A stretch of 64,000 bases of DNA from Thermomicrobiales bacterium. Its GTDB lineage: Bacteria; Chloroflexota; Chloroflexia; Thermomicrobiales; UBA6265. Every line of letters starts with the position of its first letter. Within the stretch, counting starts at the first letter, position 1. The notes below the pieces were generated by a model. The model worked only from the letters and a program-made list of their open reading frames with translations. It made no database searches and had not been told where the DNA came from. Position numbers and translations under genes: made by a program. The stretch lies in the NCBI GenBank assembly GCA_050696075.1, contig JBOGUF010000149.1, forward strand, positions 10,507-74,506, written 5' to 3'. Shown here piece after piece: positions 3,565-22,943 of the stretch.

Positions 3565-5568
3565 TCACGAGTCACCGTCCGGGTCGGAGAAGTAGTCCTC
3601 AACGATGCCGCGGTAGGCGGGTGGGACACGGTTGCTGTCGGGGCCGGCCTCGTCGACCTCGCCCTGGACGGTGGCGCCGCTGCCCGCGGTGACGCCGGCG
3701 CCGGAGCCGAGGCTGGAGGTGCCGCTATTGCCACTGGTGCGGACGCTGCCCCCATCCGGACCCTCGTTGAGCTGGAGGGAGGAACTGGCGTCGGCGGTCG
3801 AATCCTGGCCTTCGCCTTCGCCGGGCTGCCGCGCGGAGACGTTCTCCTCCGACGGCGCGCCTTCGCCCCCCTCTCCGGTTTCCTGACGGCTCGTGCCGCT
3901 CGGGTCGTCGGAGGGCTGGCCACTGCCGGAGCCGGCGCCGGCGCCCTGTTGCGACTGCGCCTCCTCGGCGCCGGTGGCGCTGCTTTGGTCGCCGGCGGGC
4001 GGGCCCCCTGGACCCTCTTGACCACCCGGCTGGCCGACTTGGTCGTCCGGATTCCCGGCCTGTGCGCCCTGGCCGCCCTCGGCTTGCTCGCCCGGTATCT
4101 GGCCATCGCCCGGTTCCTGAGCAGAGGCGCCCGGCTCTCCCGAACCTTGTTGCTGCCCATCACCGGATTGGGCCTCGGCGCCAGAACCGGTGTCACCTGA
4201 TTGTGCCTGTTGAGCGGTCTGATCGGCGGCCTGGCCCTCTTGTCCGGGCTGGCCGTCTTGTTGGGCGCCCGGGTCCTGCTGAGCGGCATCGCTGCCGCCG
4301 GAGGGTGGGCTGTCGCCGTGCGTGGCTTGGGCCTGTTCCATCCGCTCGTTGAGCTCCTGCTGGGGGACCACCTGCTCGCCGGTGCGTTCGACCTCGTCGC
4401 CGAGCTGCCGCACGCCCTCCTGCGCCGGCGTGTCGCCCTGGCGCAGGCCATCGGCGGCCTGGTTGGTGGCGTCGGTGAGGTCCTGGCTGCCCGGCGACAT
4501 TTGCGACGCCGCCGCTTCCAGGTCCTGCGCCATGCCTTCGCGGGCCGACGGGGAGAGGTCGCCGGTGCGCTCGGAGAGGTCGCGCAGCTCGTTGGCGGCC
4601 GATTCATAGTCGCCCTGCTCGATCGCTTCGGCGGCGGCGCGAGTGACCGAGTGGTCGTTGAGCGCCTCGCCGAGGTGGTCGAGGTCCTGCCGTGCTTCGT
4701 TGGAGCGTTCGGCGGTTTGCTCGACCTCAGCCACGGTCGGCACGTTTGCCGGATCGACCTCGGCGGCGGCCTGGGCCGCGGCCTCGGCTTGCTGCTCGAA
4801 GCGCTCGACGGCGGGGACGAAGCGGGGCACCCCGGCGTTGGAGACATCCGGTACGACGCCGCCGACGCCGCGCAGGAAGTAGAGCGAGGCCAGGAGCAGC
4901 CCGACCGCGACGGCGAGGACAAGTTCCCGGACAGGCAGCCGGATGCGGAAGGCGGCATGGCGTCGCACCTCGGTGACGACGTTCGCCGCGTCGGCCATCT
5001 GAAGGTAGACGACCGAGGCGCGCTCGCCGTCGCGCGGTACGGCGCGGCCGAGATTCTCGACCGCGGTCGAGACGCGCTCGTGGAGGGCGAAGGAGCGGTC
5101 GAGCATCCGCGCCACCTGGTGGCGGGTGGGGCGGGAGAGGAAGGCCAGGATGACGCCGGGAATGGCGAGCGCGACGACGAGCACGATCAGCGCGTCGACG
5201 TCGAGCGCGGGGCCGCCGGCGAGCTCGACGAGGAGCCAAACGCACCCGGCGAGCAACCCGAGCCAGGAGGCGCGGGCGATGAATGTGAAGGCGCGTTGGA
5301 GCCAGATGCGGCGCGCGATCTGCCTTGTCATCCGGGCGACCTGCTCGCCCGCGAGTCCGGCGGCCTGCACCGGCGCATCCCGCGCTGGCAGTTGCGGCGG
5401 CGGCATGTCGGAACCGAGCCAGTAGGGCAGCCAAACGATCCGCCAGAGCAAGCGCCACCGCTCGTGACGGGTCAGCGGCGGCCGGGCGGCCGCTTCCCGC
5501 CATGCCGCGACGCGCGGCCGGACATCAAAGGGGGTCTGGGTTCGTGGGAGCGAGAGACGGGTAGCCAT
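3565..5568 (-). CDS. membrane protein with long Gln/Gly/Glu/Asp-rich low-complexity region
   Basis: 667-aa ORF with several N-terminal TM helices. About 250 aa of QGEDA-rich sequence follow, then a C-terminal VPPAYRGIVEDYFS motif. Position upstream of DUF58/VWA genes fits a Bat-like cluster. Confidence 0.7.
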   Translation of the reverse strand: MATRLSLPRTQTPFDVRPRVAAWREAAARPPLTRHERWRLLWRIVWLPYWLGSDMPPPQLPARDAPVQAAGLAGEQVARMTRQIARRIWLQRAFTFIARASWLGLLAGCVWLLVELAGGPALDVDALIVLVVALAIPGVILAFLSRPTRHQVARMLDRSFALHERVSTAVENLGRAVPRDGERASVVYLQMADAANVVTEVRRHAAFRIRLPVRELVLAVAVGLLLASLYFLRGVGGVVPDVSNAGVPRFVPAVERFEQQAEAAAQAAAEVDPANVPTVAEVEQTAERSNEARQDLDHLGEALNDHSVTRAAAEAIEQGDYESAANELRDLSERTGDLSPSAREGMAQDLEAAASQMSPGSQDLTDATNQAADGLRQGDTPAQEGVRQLGDEVERTGEQVVPQQELNERMEQAQATHGDSPPSGGSDAAQQDPGAQQDGQPGQEGQAADQTAQQAQSGDTGSGAEAQSGDGQQQGSGEPGASAQEPGDGQIPGEQAEGGQGAQAGNPDDQVGQPGGQEGPGGPPAGDQSSATGAEEAQSQQGAGAGSGSGQPSDDPSGTSRQETGEGGEGAPSEENVSARQPGEGEGQDSTADASSSLQLNEGPDGGSVRTSGNSGTSSLGSGAGVTAGSGATVQGEVDEAGPDSNRVPPAYRGIVEDYFSDPDGDS

Positions 5569-15655: not shown

Positions 15656-17098
15656 TTATTCCTCCGCCATGATGCGCTCGACGTCGGAGACGATCCGTTC
15701 GAAGGCGTCTTCGGGCGACATGGCGCCGAGCATCATTGCTTCGTAACTGGGAAAGAGCCCCTCTTGCTGCGCTTTCGTCACCTTCGTGTTGATGTCCGAC
15801 GGCAGCGTGCGCGGGAGCACGCCGGCGCGGTCGAAGTACTCGCTGAAGAAGACGAGGTTGGGGTCAGCCATGTCGAGGATGCCGTTCTCCTGGCAGAAGT
15901 CGATGCCTGATTGGCGGGCCGGCACCTCATAGAGGTCCGCCGACCACACGCAGGTCGCTTCGGCCGTTGTCAAGTGCTTGGCGAAGTCGATGGCGACCCG
16001 ATAGAAGTCCGCCCCTTTGTCGTCGTCGCCCTGGAAGACGATATGGCCCGGAACGGACGTGGATGTGCCTTCCTTCTCGCCGTCGAGATGGGGGAAGGGG
16101 AGCAGCACAGGAGACAGGCAAGAGCCTTCTTCCTCTCCAGCTTCGATTTGGGCGCAGCGATTGGCCTCTTGCGGCACGGTGTAGGGGCCGGAGCGCGCGA
16201 TGAGCACCGCTTGCCAGGCGCGCCAGATCTCGACCCGGCGATCGGACTGGAGGGCGGGGGTTTCAGGCGGGGAGACGACGAGCTCGGTGTGGTAACTGAG
16301 CACGCGCTTCAAGTTCTCCAGCGCGCGCGGGTCGTTATAGAGGAACGTACCTTGTTCGTCGAAGGCGTAGGGCATCCCGGAGTTCATGTTCCAGAGCGAC
16401 CACATCTCGGGCATGCCGGAGTTGGCCCAGGTGCCGCTGTGGATCAGCCCCCACTGCTTGCCGTTGCGGCCCTCTTCCTTCGTGAGTTGCTGGGCGACCT
16501 CGGCGAACTCGTCGAAGGTCCAGCCGTTGGTCTGGATCGCCTTCCAGTCGATGCCGGCCTCTTCCAGCAGATCCTGGTTGCCGGACACGTTCCAGATTTG
16601 TTTCCAGATTGGGAAGCCCATCAGCTTGCCGTCGTAGGTGTAATACTGCAGGGTGTCCCCGAAGTCCGCCTTCTCTTCCTCAGTGAGGTACTCGTCGACG
16701 GACATCATGTAGCCGGTGTCGATCCAAGTTGGATTGAAGTAGGCGAACATGGTGTCGGGGGGCTCGCCGGCGGCGAGCTGAATGGTCACCTTCTGGGGGC
16801 CTTCTTCCCAGGTCAATTCCTCGTAATTGACCTCGACGTTGGGGTTGGCTTCGCGGAAGGTGTCGATAAAGTGTTGGAGGTTCTCTTCGTAGTGGTCCCC
16901 CTGGAACCAGGTCCAGAAGGTGAGGGAAACGTTCTCCTGGGCCGCGGTGGTGGCGTGCGCGCCATACGCCGCTACCAGGCCGGCAATCGTGGGGATTGAG
17001 AGCCGGAGGGCGATTGCGCGTTTCACCAACTCACGCCGTGAGACTCGACCGTACAGCGCATCCGCTCGGAGGATCTGGACAGCATCGTTGCTGGTCAT
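15656..17098 (-). CDS. ABC transporter substrate-binding protein (sugar, family 1)
   Basis: Tat/Sec-like leader (SRRELVKRAIALRLSIPTIAGLVAAYGAHA) and an SBP_bac_1-like body. The ATG at 17098 has an AAGGA RBS. The track ORF begins at the GTG at 17116. Confidence 0.88.
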   Translation of the reverse strand: MTSNDAVQILRADALYGRVSRRELVKRAIALRLSIPTIAGLVAAYGAHATTAAQENVSLTFWTWFQGDHYEENLQHFIDTFREANPNVEVNYEELTWEEGPQKVTIQLAAGEPPDTMFAYFNPTWIDTGYMMSVDEYLTEEEKADFGDTLQYYTYDGKLMGFPIWKQIWNVSGNQDLLEEAGIDWKAIQTNGWTFDEFAEVAQQLTKEEGRNGKQWGLIHSGTWANSGMPEMWSLWNMNSGMPYAFDEQGTFLYNDPRALENLKRVLSYHTELVVSPPETPALQSDRRVEIWRAWQAVLIARSGPYTVPQEANRCAQIEAGEEEGSCLSPVLLPFPHLDGEKEGTSTSVPGHIVFQGDDDKGADFYRVAIDFAKHLTTAEATCVWSADLYEVPARQSGIDFCQENGILDMADPNLVFFSEYFDRAGVLPRTLPSDINTKVTKAQQEGLFPSYEAMMLGAMSPEDAFERIVSDVERIMAEE

Positions 17099-17357
17099 CG
17101 TGCGTTCCTTTCTCACCGATTTCGGCTCGCCTTGCGCCGTTCCCCAACGGGCAGGGAGGGTAAGACATCGGTCCGCGGGTCAAGTGAATCCCATGGCTGC
17201 CTCCCGGTACCGGAACCGTCCGGTCTAGTGCGGGTAGCCCATCAGCTAGCAAGATGCTTGCCGAGAATGGGTCGCGTTCATCAGGCTTGCCCGATCACGT
17301 TGAACGGGGGTGATGGCGGCGGCGAGGTGTTGGACGCAGCATTGCCGCGGGCGCGAT

Positions 17358-18632
17358 TCAGCCGCCGAAGTAGTCTTCGCTGCCGACAGCGTAGCGCACC
17401 GCCTTCTCATCGTGCGCCTGCCACGGGCGCACGACGTGGGGCGGCGTGCGCTCCCAAGAGCTGTCGCCGGCCAGGCCGAAGGCGATCCCCAGCGGCGCCG
17501 GGCCGAGGTCGTTCAACCGCCCGTTGAACTTGTGCGATCCCCAGCGCGACCCGGTGGTCAGGAGGTCGAAGGTGCTAAAAGCCCCGCGCTCGTCGTCCCA
17601 GGTTGCTTCTCCCTGCAAGACGCAGTCGTAGCCGCTGGGGAGGCTGAAGAATTCGTCGCTATGGAACCGCGTGAACTCCACGTGCCAGGAGAGCCGCGCC
17701 GCGCCGGAGATGGTGAGCTCGATCCGGCGCCCATCGACGTGGGTGATCTCCGACGTAAGCTCCGCTCGCTCGATCGCCTCTTCGGGCCAGATGAACGGCT
17801 CGCCGCGCACGATGTCGCGCAGGTGGAAGCGGGCTAGCCGGCGCAGCACCGACCAGGGCGCGTCAGCACAGGCGCCGGCTTGGCGCGGCGCCGGTACGAG
17901 TGCTTTCGCTTCGTCGGCCGTGATCCAAGCAAAATCGTAGTTCCAGGCGTGCTTGTAGCGCGGGTTGTCGTCGTGCGGCTCGACGTCGCGCGGGAGGTCG
18001 CGGGCGACGATGTGAAGGACGAGGACGTCGTCGGGGACGGCGATGGCCACCGGCTCGGCGTCGGGCATCGGGGCCGGTTCGGCCGATCGGTCGTCGTCCA
18101 ACGCCTGCCAGCGCGCCAGTGCCTCCCGCATCATCCGCTCCATCTCGCGCGGATCGAGGCTGTTGCCGGAGGCGAGGAAGGCGCCATCAGGGCCGAAACA
18201 GTAACTCCCTTGGTGGCTGACCAATTCGCCCGGCTGATCGGCCATTCGTTGGGCGACGTGACCCTGGTGCGCGACGCCGCGGAAGAACCGTCCCTTGGCG
18301 TCGTCTTGCACCTGCATGCCGGAGACGTTCTCCGCCACTGGGACGAAGCGTTCGCTGGCGAGTTTGATGATCGTGGGATTGCTGAAGACCAGTGCACGGC
18401 CGGTCACGCCGTTGTTTCAGGTGCAGCCGAGGGGATTGCCGTTCATCGTCCAAAGGAAGACCGGCTTGTGCTGCGCCGCCGCGAGGCGGCAGGCTGCGAA
18501 GATGTCCTGCTGCCAGGGAATCGCCTGCCAGCGCAGTTCCTCTGCCTTCGGTCGGATGAACGCGAGGAGGTCGCGAAAGCGGCCCGCGTCAACCAGTACC
18601 TCGGCGTCCGCATTTGCTGGATGGGAACCCAT
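17358..18632 (-). CDS. thioredoxin-fold protein interrupted by one in-frame TGA (candidate selenoprotein or pseudogene)
   Basis: Track ORFs 18417..18632 and 17358..18407 are in the same frame, separated only by the TGA at 18417-18419. Joined sequence: ...HKPVFLWTMNGNPLGCT-TGA-NNGVTGRALVFSNPTIIKLASERFVPV. This looks like a thioredoxin_7/DUF255-type redox-motif region. Confidence 0.5.
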
Positions 18633-18791: not shown

Positions 18792-19970
18792 TTAGATATC
18801 CGGTCCGGGTTCAAGGTCCTCGCAGATCAGGCCCCAGGGACGGGTGAGGGCGCGGGTCATGACGAGGGTGACGCGGCGGGGGCCGGTGAGCTTGAGGCGG
18901 CGGTGGAGGGCGGCGACGTCGCCGGGGAGGCCGCGGCGGCGGATGTTGACGGCGCCGACATCGAGTTGCCGCAGCCGGCTGGCGATCTGCTTCTGATGCC
19001 AGGGCAGCGACTCGACGACGCGCAGCGACCGGCCGAAGGGTGAACTGAGGGGTGCATCGGCGGAGAGGAAGGCGATCTGGTCGTCGATCTTCCAGGCGTC
19101 GAGGTCGCGGGCCAACTCCTCGACAAGGCCGGCGCGGGTGACGGCCGGGTTCGGGTCGAGGAGATAGGCGCCGGGCATGCGGACGGGAACGGGCGGGCCG
19201 GGGTTGGCGACCATGGTCGCGCCGGCTGGGAGGATGGTGGCGCGGCAGGAGGTGGTCGCCAGGGCAGGGGACCAGAGGACCGCTTCCTTCAAATCGCGGC
19301 CGTCGGCGACGAATTCGACTTCCCACCCGGGCGGGACGATCTCGCGCGGCAGTCCGGGCGCGGCTTTGACGCCGACGGCCGGAACGCGCTCGATCAGGCC
19401 GACGCACCAATCGAGCGGGGGTTCACTCTGGCCGTGGCCGAGTCGCCGGTCGCCGGCGCGGCGGGCGGGGTCGATGAAGATGGCATCAACGCCGTCGAGG
19501 GAGACGTCGCCGACGTCGCTTTCGATCGTGGTGATTGGGCCGGCGCGGTAGACGGCGGCGTTGAGTGCGGCCATGCGCAGGTGGACCGGATCGAGGTCGA
19601 CGGCGAGCGCCGCGCGACCGGCGGCGAGAGCAATCAGGTCGCCGCCGATGCCGGTGCAGAGATCGGCGACGGTCTGGACGCCGGCGTAGCGACGGGCGCG
19701 GTGGCGGGCGGTCAACTCGGAGGACGCCTGTTCCAGCCCCGGCCGGGTGAAATACATCGCCTTCGCCCGGCTGAACTTCGCCTGCCCAAGAACGCGCAGC
19801 TCGTGTTGCCAGAAGGCGGCGGCGACCAACTCCGCGGGATACTCGCGCCGCAGCGTGGCGGCGAGGCGCAACTCTTCCTCAGGCGTCGGCCGCGCCTGCT
19901 GGAGACGGGCCAGCACATCCTGACCGGCTATTGAAAGGAGGAGGTCCAGGCGCCTCATGCCGTCAGTCAT
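18792..19970 (-). CDS. class I SAM-dependent methyltransferase (THUMP-like C-terminal region)
   Basis: 392 aa with SAM motif I VADLCTGIGGDLIALA. Confidence 0.8.
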   Translation of the reverse strand: MTDGMRRLDLLLSIAGQDVLARLQQARPTPEEELRLAATLRREYPAELVAAAFWQHELRVLGQAKFSRAKAMYFTRPGLEQASSELTARHRARRYAGVQTVADLCTGIGGDLIALAAGRAALAVDLDPVHLRMAALNAAVYRAGPITTIESDVGDVSLDGVDAIFIDPARRAGDRRLGHGQSEPPLDWCVGLIERVPAVGVKAAPGLPREIVPPGWEVEFVADGRDLKEAVLWSPALATTSCRATILPAGATMVANPGPPVPVRMPGAYLLDPNPAVTRAGLVEELARDLDAWKIDDQIAFLSADAPLSSPFGRSLRVVESLPWHQKQIASRLRQLDVGAVNIRRRGLPGDVAALHRRLKLTGPRRVTLVMTRALTRPWGLICEDLEPGPDI

Positions 19971-20016: not shown

Positions 20017-22425
20017 TCAGATCAGGCCGCGGCGGACGGCAACGGTGGCGGCCGCGGTGCGGTTGGCGGCGCCGAGCTTTTCCAGAATCGCGGCGACGTG
20101 CTTGGAGGCGGTGCGGGAGGAGATGAAGAGGGCGGCGGCGATCTCGTGGTCGGAGCGGCCCTCGCCGAGGAGGCGCAGCACGTCGCGCTCGCGCGGAGTG
20201 AGGCCGGCGCTGTCGGCCGGAGGCAGGGGTTCAGGGAGAGGCAACGCGAGAGCAGGCGCGGTTTCGGCGGCTGGTTCGAGGAGCGCCGTCGCGTGGGCGA
20301 TGGCCTGATCGAGGCGCCAGGCGCTGCCTATCGTCCAGGCAGCGGTGAAGGCTGTCTCGCCGAGGCGCGCGCAAGCGGCCTCCGCCGCGCGGGCGTACCG
20401 TTCTTGTTCGGGCAGTTCGAAGGCGTACCCGAGGGCCTGGGCGGCGGCCTCTGCCGCGCCGAGGAGCGCCGCGGCCTCTGCCGCCTGGTCGCGCTCCACG
20501 AGGAGGCAGGCGACGCGGGCCAAGGAGTCGACGATCCCTTCCTTCGACCCGACCCGTTGGTGCCAGGCGAGGCTCTCGCGGTACACCCGCGCGGCGCGGT
20601 CGTGGTCGCCAAGATCGCCGGTGACAAGTGCTAGGTCGCTGAGGGTGACGGCCACGCCCCATGGCTCATCGAGGTCGCGATAGCGACGCAGGGAGTCTTC
20701 GAGGAGGGCGACTGCCCGCGCCGGATCGCCCTGCCAGTAGGCGAGGATGCCGAGGTTGCAGCGGGCGAGGGCGACCCAGGTCGGCGCGTCCGACTGCTCG
20801 AAGAGGGCGAGCGCCTCCGCGAAGAGGGCAACCGCTCGATCGTAGTCGCCGCGACTCCGGGCCAGGGCGCCCAGCAAGTTGAGGATGGCGCCGGTGTCGC
20901 GGGTTTCATCAAGCTCGCGGTAGAGCGTCAGGGCTGATTCGGCGAAGGCGATGGCCCGCGCGGGATCACCGCGGGTGCGGGCGAGCGAGGCGGCGGCGTG
21001 GAGCGCCCGTGCCCGGATTGCGGGCGGCACTTCCGCCTGGCGCTCCACCGTGAGCGCCCGTTCAAGCCACTGCAACCCCTCGACGCGGTGGCTGCGGAGG
21101 GACCAGAAGGGCGCGAGGACGGTGGCCAGGCGGAGGAGAGACGTCGTGTCGCCGCGCTGCTCCAGCCAGGCCAGGGCCGCGCGCAAGTTGCCATACTCAC
21201 GCTCCAGGCGATCGAAGACTTCGGGATGGACCGGTTCCCGCATCGGGAAGGTCAGCGCGTGTTCGGCAAGATCCAGGCACCAGCGCGCGTGTTGACGCCG
21301 CGCCTCGTCGGCCTCGCCGCTCGCCGCCAGCCGCTCTAGGGCGTACTCCCGGATCGTCTCTAGGAGTCCGAAGCGCGACTCGTCTCCCTCTCCGCCGTCC
21401 TGTCGCACCAGGCTCTTGTCGACGAGGGAGGCGAGGAGGTCGAGGACGGAGGCGGAAGACGGAAGGCGGGAGGCGGGAGGCGGCCGAGGCGTCGTCATTA
21501 TCCGCCTTCCGCCTGCCGCCACCACTTCGGCGGCATCGAGGGAGAAGCCGGGGGTGAAGACGGCGAGGCGGCGGAAGAGGGCTTGCTCCTGCCCGTCGAG
21601 AAGGTCGTAGGACCAAGCGATGGCGGCGCGCAAGGTTTGGAGGCGGTCAGGGGCGTCGCGAGGGCCGCCGGTGAGGAGCGGCAAGCGTTGCTCGAGCCGG
21701 GAAAGGAGCGCGGGCAGGTTCAGGACTTTGACGCGGGCGGCAGCCAGCTCAATGGCGAGCGGCAGGTCGTCGAGGCGGGCGCAGATGGCATCGAGGAGCG
21801 GTTGATCGGCCGGCGTGACGGAAAATTGGGCGTCGACCGCGAGGGCGCGCTCGGCGAAGAGGCGGGCCGCGGCGGGTCGGGCCAGGGGCGGGACATGGAG
21901 GATACGCTCGCCGGAGAGACGGAGCGGTTCCCGGCTGGTGACCAGCGCGCGGAGGCGGGGGCAGACGGTGAGCAGCTCGGCCAAGATGGGCGCGGCGGCG
22001 ATGACGTGCTCGACATTGTCGATCAGGAGCAGCGCGTGGGTGTGACGGAGGGCGGCCTTCAGGCGGGCGATCAACGGCTGGTCGTGGGCCTCGCGCACGC
22101 CAAGGGCGCGGGCAATGGTCGCGGCGACAAGGTCCGGGTCGCGCAACGCGGCCAGCGGAATGAAAGCAACGCCGTCCTTGAAATCGGGTTCAAGTTCGGC
22201 CGCGACCTGAAGGGCGAGGCGCGTTTTGCCGACGCCACCGGGACCGGTCAGCGTCAGCAAACGGGTGTCGCCGCCCAGCAGCGTCGTCGCCATGGCGACT
22301 TCATCTGCCCGTCCGATGAGCGCGGTGAGCGGCGTCGGCAGGTTGGCGTCGGCGAACCGCTCCTCGCGGGGGAGGGTGGTGAGTTTGCTGGTTCGTGGCT
22401 TGGGTGAGAACGGCTCGGTCGACAT
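20017..22425 (-). CDS. LuxR-family transcriptional regulator with AAA ATPase and TPR region (paralog of 9042..11468)
   Basis: Walker A GPGGVGKTRL, TPR repeats and a C-terminal LuxR HTH. Start placed at the ATG at 22425 (MSTEPFSPKP). The upstream part of the track ORF translates a nonamer repeat (LANLANLAN). Confidence 0.9.
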   Translation of the reverse strand: MSTEPFSPKPRTSKLTTLPREERFADANLPTPLTALIGRADEVAMATTLLGGDTRLLTLTGPGGVGKTRLALQVAAELEPDFKDGVAFIPLAALRDPDLVAATIARALGVREAHDQPLIARLKAALRHTHALLLIDNVEHVIAAAPILAELLTVCPRLRALVTSREPLRLSGERILHVPPLARPAAARLFAERALAVDAQFSVTPADQPLLDAICARLDDLPLAIELAAARVKVLNLPALLSRLEQRLPLLTGGPRDAPDRLQTLRAAIAWSYDLLDGQEQALFRRLAVFTPGFSLDAAEVVAAGGRRIMTTPRPPPASRLPSSASVLDLLASLVDKSLVRQDGGEGDESRFGLLETIREYALERLAASGEADEARRQHARWCLDLAEHALTFPMREPVHPEVFDRLEREYGNLRAALAWLEQRGDTTSLLRLATVLAPFWSLRSHRVEGLQWLERALTVERQAEVPPAIRARALHAAASLARTRGDPARAIAFAESALTLYRELDETRDTGAILNLLGALARSRGDYDRAVALFAEALALFEQSDAPTWVALARCNLGILAYWQGDPARAVALLEDSLRRYRDLDEPWGVAVTLSDLALVTGDLGDHDRAARVYRESLAWHQRVGSKEGIVDSLARVACLLVERDQAAEAAALLGAAEAAAQALGYAFELPEQERYARAAEAACARLGETAFTAAWTIGSAWRLDQAIAHATALLEPAAETAPALALPLPEPLPPADSAGLTPRERDVLRLLGEGRSDHEIAAALFISSRTASKHVAAILEKLGAANRTAAATVAVRRGLI
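21448..21522. repeat. inverted heptamer arrays (GGAGGCG/GAAGGCG x5 and CCGCCTT x3) embedded in frame in the LuxR CDS
   Basis: Left arm ggaggcggaagacggaaggcgggaggcgggaggcg. Spacer gccgaggcgtcgtcattat. Right arm ccgccttccgcctgccgccac. The element encodes about GGRRIMTTPRPPPASRLPSSAS. Confidence 0.8.
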
Positions 22426-22532
22426 GCCAGGGTCCTGACGGGTAGTCAGCGTGCGGCGTGGCGCTATGGTTTCAACGATACCGCACTGGTAGCGGTTTTC
22501 GATATGAGCGTGGTGAGACAGGTTGGTGCGGT

Positions 22533-22568
22533 GGTTGGCCAGGTTGGCCAAGTTGGCCAGGTGGACAA
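22533..22568. repeat. tandem nonamer array (GGTTGGCCA x3-4) upstream of the LuxR gene
   Basis: ggttggccaggttggccaagttggccaggtggacaa read directly. Each unit contains the palindrome TGGCCA. Confidence 0.75.
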
Positions 22569-22943
22569 GCTGGAGCAATCGGACCGTGGGGCAGCGGGGG
22601 CCGCCCTGGACTAAAGTCGGGGCTCGGTGACGGCAGTCGGCTGGAAGCCGACTGCCCGCGGGCCGGGTGTGTCGATGATTCGGGCGATGGCACAGGGCAG
22701 CCGCTTGGTTGATCAGGTTGATCGCGGGATCAATCTGGGGTGGGTGAGAGACGACGAAAAGCGCCCTCTATCTATTAAGGCATTGATTTTTGGGGCAAAA
22801 TGGGACTCAGATTTCGATTATTGATCATGTGGTTATGTGTATTGTTGTGTCGTTCGTCGCGCTCGCTGGCTCCGATGCGGCGGGGAAGGACATGAGAGAA
22901 TGGGCGGTTATCGAGTGGTCATCCGTGGCGGTGATACGGGCGA

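Follow-up and report, generated by a model that had tools for sequence, protein, structure and literature searches.

A conserved in-frame TGA in a Thermomicrobiales gene points to a selenoprotein family in Chloroflexota, Planctomycetota and Armatimonadota

Does a lone TGA inside an otherwise continuous reading frame end a gene, mark its decay or encode selenocysteine (Sec)? This question is raised by a locus on the minus strand of contig JBOGUF010000149.1 (GenBank assembly GCA_050696075.1), from a Thermomicrobiales bacterium, within the 64,000-nucleotide stretch that was analyzed here as a whole (the window; 66% G+C, with no tRNA genes and no Rfam matches). The initial annotation had described two open reading frames (ORFs), 18632..18417 (71 aa) and 18407..17358 (349 aa), which share one frame and are parted only by the TGA at 18419..18417, and had regarded them as either a selenoprotein candidate or a fresh pseudogene. 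Reexamination of the minus strand confirmed this arrangement, and our analysis indicates that the region is very probably one gene for a 424-residue selenoprotein (Table 1).

The frame opens with an ATG at 18632, with AGAGG lying 9 nt 5′ of it, and is interrupted by one in-frame TGA in the codon context ...KPVFLWTMNGNPLGC-T-[TGA]-NNGVTGRALVFSNP.... The joined translation proposed initially, ...KPVFLWTMNGNPLGCT*NNGVTGRALVFSNPTIIKLASERFVPV..., was reproduced, and residues 1–424 of the joined protein were matched in locus L001 by tblastn. GenBank lists two hypothetical proteins, ACRDJW_18065 (71 aa, the upstream half) and ACRDJW_18060 (349 aa, the downstream half), from a Thermomicrobiales metagenome-assembled genome (MAG). 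Almost all database proteins of the family are divided into two fragments in the same way, and Pla163_34300, from the cultured planctomycete Rohdeia mirabilis Pla163 (complete genome NZ_CP036290, with the homolog at about 4.498 Mb), is annotated from residue ~96 only. The gene's own terminator, in the window and in many relatives, is also TGA; since this codon serves as a terminator as well, the internal TGA needs context-dependent recoding.

To assess the conservation of the internal codon, we searched protein, genome and metagenome sequences. A protein search with the joined protein returned 256 relatives, the best 120 of which were inspected for coverage; each covers only 73–82% of the joined query, and the nine that were retrieved all start with M/V-[AT]-G-R, just past the TGA position. 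Truncation at a single point is the expected output of gene callers for a family with a conserved internal stop. A genome scan restricted to one genome per species yielded 80 loci from Chloroflexota (Thermomicrobiales, Thermoflexus, Chloroflexia), Planctomycetota, Armatimonadota and a few others, in which tblastn alignments cross the stop into the N-terminal part. The site was readable in 76 of them, the window counted, and 75 carry TGA at the same column, within the motif LWAMNG[NH]P[LM][GA]C[TV]-*-[NG]NG[VI]; the sole exception, L053, has GCC (Ala).

Metagenome contigs were scanned for the DNA pattern M-N-G-[NH]-P-x-[GA]-C-[TV]-NNN-N-N-G, in which the critical codon is unconstrained, so that the result is independent of gene calling. 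All 121 matches listed, from at least 120 contigs, have TGA at this position. In addition, a profile built from the 71-residue N-terminal fragments and compared with 1.84 billion representative proteins matched 1902 proteins at E ≤ 1e-3 and 950 at E ≤ 1e-10, and in 148 of the best 150 matches the last residue is the one that directly precedes the TGA. The other two read through it: P0224 (Ser), whose C-terminus looks frame-shifted, and P0306 (Ala), which belongs with L053 to one paralog type. One further read-through protein, P0316 (Leu), from a single 996-bp contig, emerged from a profile that covers both sides of the site. Alignment of homologs, which the initial annotation had proposed as a check, therefore shows TGA almost without exception, with neither Trp nor Arg at the column and only Ala, Ser and Leu as alternatives.

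Both parts of the frame are under constraint. Compared with L001, which is 84% identical, the window has 17 synonymous and 9 non-synonymous differences in the 71 codons that precede the TGA, and 20 and 9, respectively, in the 110 codons that follow it. This synonymous excess in both halves indicates purifying selection on both sides of the TGA. The TGA at codon 72 is thus a conserved, selected feature of a large family whose coding sequence is kept in frame on either side of it. A fresh pseudogene, in which a recent nonsense mutation in a thioredoxin-fold gene has created a plain stop, would account for a lone in-frame stop in an otherwise intact ORF and for the separate treatment of the halves in GenBank. 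However, the stop is the same codon in all but one of the readable genome loci and in every metagenome match listed, both halves remain under purifying selection, and no ancestral sense codon appears among the homologs beyond the three isolated Ala, Ser and Leu cases. Moreover, the loci are not copies of one sequence, being 31–84% identical and distributed over several phyla. Conservation of the TGA across homologs refutes the pseudogene alternative of the initial annotation, to which we assign a negligible probability, and the extent of that conservation supports its selenoprotein alternative.

A second alternative is that two real genes adjoin here, a 71-residue peptide and a 349-residue protein that restarts at a GTG four codons on, perhaps by translational coupling. 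Chloroflexota sequences are compatible with this arrangement in that a GTG or ATG stands four codons past the TGA, which gene callers therefore take as a start. By contrast, most relatives from Planctomycetota and Armatimonadota carry GTC, ATC or ATT at the corresponding position and have no start nearby, and the called proteins begin deep in the conserved region, as in the shortened Pla163_34300; in most Planctomycetota relatives, therefore, the downstream part is not a separate gene. The three intervening codons (N-N-G) are also invariant or nearly so, and the break would split one domain between its first strand and its first helix. Collectively, these features make two separate genes very improbable and favor a single gene read through the TGA.

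If the UGA is decoded as Sec, a bacterial selenocysteine insertion sequence (SECIS) is expected within the coding region. The bacterial SECIS (bSECIS) model of bSECISearch specifies a stem of 4–16 bp, a loop of 3–9 nt with a G within its first two positions, a UGA-to-loop distance of 16–37 nt and a minimum free energy ≤ -7.5 kcal/mol (PMC13188914). The hairpin named in the initial annotation (ACGGC-GUGACCG-GCCGU) exists, as does its UGAA/UUCA outer pairing, but its spacing from the UGA is 9 nt, outside the range of the model. Although 93% of its pairs are kept among Chloroflexota relatives, compensatory changes are absent, and the hairpin is not conserved in other phyla. The outer pairing, a closing lower stem, is nearly invariant and so uninformative, and it too is absent in other phyla. 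The SECIS is probably the hairpin at 18387-18405, displaced 7 nt downstream, which has a spacing of 17 nt and an energy of -7.7 kcal/mol and agrees with the bSECIS rules for stem, loop length, spacing and energy, but not with that for the loop G.

Comparative evidence for this second hairpin comes from 26 Chloroflexota sequences, across which its stem is 85% paired and its loop reads CGUGA or CCGUGCN. Counting from the U of UGA, nt 23-24 of this loop are G and U. We take this G23/U24 numbering to be that of the SelB-contacting bases of E. coli fdhF. Pair 16-32 is G-C in 18 sequences, A-U in 6, G-U in 2 and unpaired in none, a change that is visible in the protein as coupled Thr/Ala ... Val/Ala, and the observed covariation score was reached by 0 of 500 shuffles. 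The two overlapping hairpins, 18396-18412 and 18387-18405, have a geometry that by itself would permit an H-type pseudoknot (stems nt 8-11/21-24 and 15-20/28-33); this reading was set aside.

Across the wider family, a SECIS is well supported. Among 48 Planctomycetota and Armatimonadota relatives, 28 conform to all four bSECIS rules, with a 6–9 bp stem (e.g., CCAGACG/CGUCUGG) that starts some 17–19 nt after the UGA, a 3–5 nt loop whose first base is G (mostly GUC or GGUCG), and energies of -9 to -14 kcal/mol. Overall, about two-thirds of relatives pass every rule, with loops GUC, GGC, GGUCG or CGUGA and energies of -9 to -16 kcal/mol, and no rule-conforming hairpin occurs in about a quarter, among them the sequences closest to the window (L001-L004, L010-L012). 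In most relatives, the hairpin occupies an equivalent position, and G is the first or second loop base and is usually followed by U, with G-G or G-A in a minority. The hairpins average -10.9 kcal/mol across the family, whereas the figure for other windows of these genes is -7.4 kcal/mol, and L053, which has Ala in place of Sec, lacks a downstream hairpin.

Synonymous variation is likewise strongly suppressed after the TGA, at codon +1 and, over the stretch occupied by the stem, at codons +5 to +10. Chloroflexota use AAC at +1 (26/26), GCC at +5 (20/20), GGC at +6 (18/19), the rare CGT at +7 (24/26) and CTG at +9 (11/11), and the other phyla use GCC at +6 (28/29), the rare AGA/AGG at +7, CGG at +8 (35/36) and GTC at +10 (40/46), compared with an entropy of about 1.2–1.9 bits at four-fold sites elsewhere in the alignment. 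These hairpins resemble the bacterial SECIS consensus (PMC13188914), whose prototype is E. coli fdhF, in following the UGA within the coding sequence, with a loop spacing of 17–23 nt, a stem of 6–9 bp and a 3–7 nt loop containing G-U; they differ from it in a register that shifts by about 4 nt between phyla. RNAalifold returned no structure for the Planctomycetota group, because the hairpin register shifts between subgroups.

In the search for selenocysteine machinery, E. coli SelA, SelB and SelD served as tblastn queries for the window and for every locus; the matches were to generic GTPases, with the exception of a selD homolog in L046. This homolog (L046:16053-16985, a Planctomycetota MAG) shares 39% identity with E. 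coli SelD across 312 aa and lies 5 kb downstream of a family member. Genes for tRNA-Sec occur in two Armatimonadota MAGs, at L034:6235-6329 and L035:556-650, 3.8 and 9.4 kb upstream of the homolog; they are 2 of the 11 tRNA genes found in about 1 Mb of genome-locus flanks. Some Planctomycetes carry the full Sec machinery (PMC4807772).

The site itself is consistent with a redox function. Initially, a thioredoxin_7/DUF255-type fold had been proposed for the joined protein; every match to it proved sub-threshold, but the weak matches agree with one another and place Sec at the redox position. Pfam Thioredoxin_7 is matched below threshold in 8 of 28 diverse members (best E 0.018). The NCBIfam VPGUxxT families NF041382 and NF041383 match residues 38-100 of the window protein with scores of 18.9 and 13.7 bits, where the curated cut-offs are 275 and 350. 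They recur in 7–8 of the 28 members at scores of similar magnitude (best E 1.9e-5). When the family profile was compared with PDB sequences, two non-significant matches emerged, 3f9u (E 0.54, over the domain) and 3ira (E 0.6, over 39 N-terminal positions). From their depositor names, "exported cytochrome c biogenesis-related protein" and "conserved protein", we take both to be Thioredoxin_7/DUF255-type proteins. In 3f9u, the residue opposite Sec is the first Cys of CVNC, and hhalign gives a probability of 28% over 115 co-linear columns.

The C-x-U spacing had been thought to lower confidence in Sec. This concern does not hold, as the 2026 catalogue lists several CxU families (PMC13188914) and two paralogs, L013 and L016, keep the TGA with Cys70 replaced by Leu (G-L-T-U). 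Their G-C-T-U partners, L007 and L026, reside in the same MAGs. Loss of the Cys with retention of the TGA implies that the Cys is not essential and that Sec is. The Ala-bearing L053/P0306 clade alters otherwise invariant C-terminal residues (HLRDxVRGE to HLVDHVRGG), and it may be an inactive or repurposed copy.

Several observations weigh against a selenoprotein. In most redox selenoprotein families, Cys members far outnumber Sec members. Here, three protein searches and two DNA scans found no Cys form at the Sec column, which is unusual for redox selenoproteins and removes the usual argument from Sec/Cys pairing. Near-total absence of Cys forms has been reported for a few families only, e.g., GrdA (PMC1794560). 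Neither the window nor ~9 kb more contig, taken from another assembly of this organism, contains selA, selB, selD or tRNA-Sec, and most of the flanks of the homologs are likewise without them.

The RNA evidence at the window itself is also mixed. The G of the hairpin at 18387-18405 is the third loop base, not the first or second, the hairpin is no more stable than 39% of the other 30-nt windows of the gene, and the competing fold at 18396-18412 is marginally more stable, with a pairing probability of 0.75 versus 0.21. Rfam SECIS models did not match, even with the cut-off relaxed from the gathering threshold to E ≤ 10, and a fixed-register pair count in the Planctomycetota group revealed only marginal covariation. 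At the protein level, Pfam returned no significant match for the window protein (Thioredoxin_7, PF13899, 12.2 bits versus a threshold of 27). The model of the Ala paralog P0306 has the N-terminal order beta-alpha-beta-alpha-beta-beta-alpha, with a predicted local distance difference test score (pLDDT) below 50 at the site, and that of P0224 is poor overall, including around the Sec site. The thioredoxin-like assignment, drawn from sub-threshold similarities only, is accordingly graded as plausible and self-consistent but unproven.

Some of these points would equally suit a UGA that is decoded but not as Sec, whether by hairpin-stimulated near-cognate read-through (Trp, Cys or Arg) or by regulated termination giving short and long products: no Sec genes in the sequence surrounding the window's gene, a hairpin that fits the bSECIS model only partly, and no Cys form for comparison. 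Against such decoding stand the tRNA-Sec or selD genes near homologs in three loci, the share of tRNA-Sec among the flanking tRNA genes, and the position of the site beside a Cys at the redox position of a thioredoxin-like domain. Furthermore, an obligate TGA across phyla, combined with a coding-region hairpin whose loop starts with G-U (G-G or G-A in a minority), is a known bacterial Sec signature. We consider decoding other than as Sec improbable, if less remote than two separate genes, and retain Sec as the favored identity of residue 72.

On established Sec biology, UGA72 would be recoded by SelB carrying Sec-tRNA(Sec), recruited by the SECIS hairpin inside the coding sequence, most likely nt 15-33 after the UGA (18387-18405). 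Weak homology suggests that Sec72 opens helix 1 of a Thioredoxin_7/DsbD-like domain, where a CxxC motif would have its nucleophilic Cys, in what would be a Sec-dependent redox enzyme. Cys70, two residues upstream, is a possible resolving partner that could form a selenenylsulfide with Sec72. The conserved C-terminal beta-rich domain might bind the substrate, although this is a guess.

Table 1. Features of the putative selenoprotein gene and its Sec site, in window coordinates (nt counted from the U of UGA)
Feature	Position	Strand	Details
Complete gene for the probable selenoprotein	17358..18632	minus	424 codons including Sec72, and terminal TGA stop 17360..17358
In-frame TGA, codon 72, probably read as selenocysteine	18417..18419	minus	Same codon in 75/76 genome loci
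Cys70 (TGC), C of the C-T-U motif, candidate resolving residue	18423..18425	minus	Kept in about 92-100% of family members
Best SECIS candidate	18387..18405	minus	6-bp stem nt 15-20 / 28-33; 7-nt loop CCGUGCA with G23-U24
Hairpin of the initial annotation, alternative fold exclusive of 18387-18405	18396..18412	minus	nt 8-12 / 20-24; -8.3 kcal/mol
UUCA, pairs with UGAA 18416-18419 as closing lower stem	18383..18386	minus	99% paired in 26 Chloroflexota sequences
Putative Thioredoxin_7/DsbD-like domain, about residues 30-170, holds Sec site	18123..18545	minus	Weak matches, all below family thresholds
C-terminal beta-rich domain of unknown kind, about residues 200-424	17361..18035	minus	Invariant columns

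To place this family among described selenoproteins, we compared it with the 119 prokaryotic families that a 2026 review catalogues with domain identifiers and motifs (PMC13188914). No Pfam or NCBIfam identifier of that catalogue matches the protein, save VPGUxxT below threshold. The NCBI pipeline uses those catalogue models, yet it called two hypothetical proteins here; given this and the lack of a catalogue match, we regard the family as not yet catalogued within the literature searched, while its general kind, a thioredoxin-like redox protein with a coding-region SECIS, is familiar.

The VPGUxxT thioredoxin-like (seleno)proteins (OS_HP5, from the Olavius symbiont study) are likewise bacterial and thioredoxin-like, and they are the only library families that match at all, over the Sec-site stretch. 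They differ in motif (V-P-G-U-x-x-T rather than the G-C-T-U-N-N-G found here) and in length (profiles of 287 and 349 versus 424 aa), and the C-terminal domain described here goes unmatched. With Thioredoxin_7 (PF13899), DsbD-gamma-like and DUF255-type domains (3f9u, 3ira), the family shares a weak co-linear similarity along the entire N-terminal domain, which takes in a KP(v/i)(f/l)L strand, the active-site loop and a helix, and then an F(V/I)P strand and a C-terminal helix. Unlike those proteins, it has Gly in place of the second Cys of CxxC, with the partner Cys two residues upstream instead, and an extra C-terminal domain of 230 residues. As in the CxU selenoprotein families, Cys and Sec have one residue between them, but there is no sequence match to PF13192, NF041203 or NF041198, and the Cys is dispensable in one paralog clade.

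Two features of the family are unusual, the near-total absence of Cys forms and a C-terminal domain without relatives. Taken together, the data tip slightly in favor of an undescribed, widespread and essentially obligate-Sec enzyme family that comprises 950 or more clusters at 50% identity and spans Chloroflexota, Planctomycetota and Armatimonadota, with no Cys form and a C-terminal domain without known relative. If this holds, Sec does something in the family that Cys cannot replace, and the family may be one reason that these three phyla retain Sec machinery. Large families with virtually no Cys form are rare, and this one would allow one to ask what Sec offers beyond Cys. The family comes from soil, freshwater and marine samples, and an added selenium requirement in its host phyla would shift estimates of selenium use for these habitats. 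For annotation, a Sec codon would merge thousands of entries now held as 71-residue and ~330-350-residue "hypothetical protein" fragments, including that of Rohdeia mirabilis Pla163.

The C-terminal part carries the invariant motifs RDLPR, WNxDxxW, HLRDxVRGEP, GEAxW, G.RWG...N.R.DDLGPAP and RT.PH, and in the AlphaFold model of P0306 this beta-rich domain is confident (residues 190-370). Foldseek with that model found no PDB fold match at E ≤ 0.001, and neither PDB sequences nor Pfam gave a match; it would thus be a newly recognized conserved domain for which PDB and Pfam yielded no relative, whether by structure or by sequence. The Foldseek matches above that cut-off, to lipocalin/avidin/YceI-like barrels, were weak and are not trusted.

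A simple hydrophobicity test detected a signal peptide in 36 of the 76 loci, all from Planctomycetota and Armatimonadota (about two-thirds of those), and the Chloroflexota members, the window included, are without one. On these sequence features, the Chloroflexota versions would act in the cytoplasm, and the signal-peptide-bearing Planctomycetota and Armatimonadota versions would act outside it. Three Bythopirellula loci (L048, L052, L054) have a signal peptide and an extra N-terminal domain, ~150 residues together (DLSGVWKLRLSFGNRG...), ahead of the thioredoxin-like domain; this extra part is located about 630 nt upstream of the TGA. At the other end, L071 has 746 aa after the TGA, which suggests a C-terminal fusion.

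A scan of the window for in-frame TGAs that might mark a second selenoprotein yielded antisense-frame artefacts only. The TGA at 4198-4200 (+), between long ORFs with high G+C at third codon positions, was rejected as an antisense artefact opposite the real gene 3565..5568 (-); shadow ORFs are common in the window because of its high G+C.

No gene neighborhood is conserved across phyla. In 10 Chloroflexota loci, a putative histidine-phosphatase (PGAM-like) gene, judged by eye from its VILVRHA motif, lies directly 3′ of the selenoprotein gene, about 1 kb past the TGA in L008, L009, L012, L015, L017, L019, L020 and L023 and at other offsets in L011 and L022; it is absent in the window and in other phyla. 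The neighbors in the window show no functional tie to the selenoprotein gene: downstream, a sugar-type ABC transporter operon runs from 15656-17116 to about 12000 (-), with SBP_bac_1, two permeases and a MalK-like ATPase, and upstream, a THUMP-like methyltransferase (18792-19970) is followed by an AAA/TPR/GerE regulator (20017-22578).

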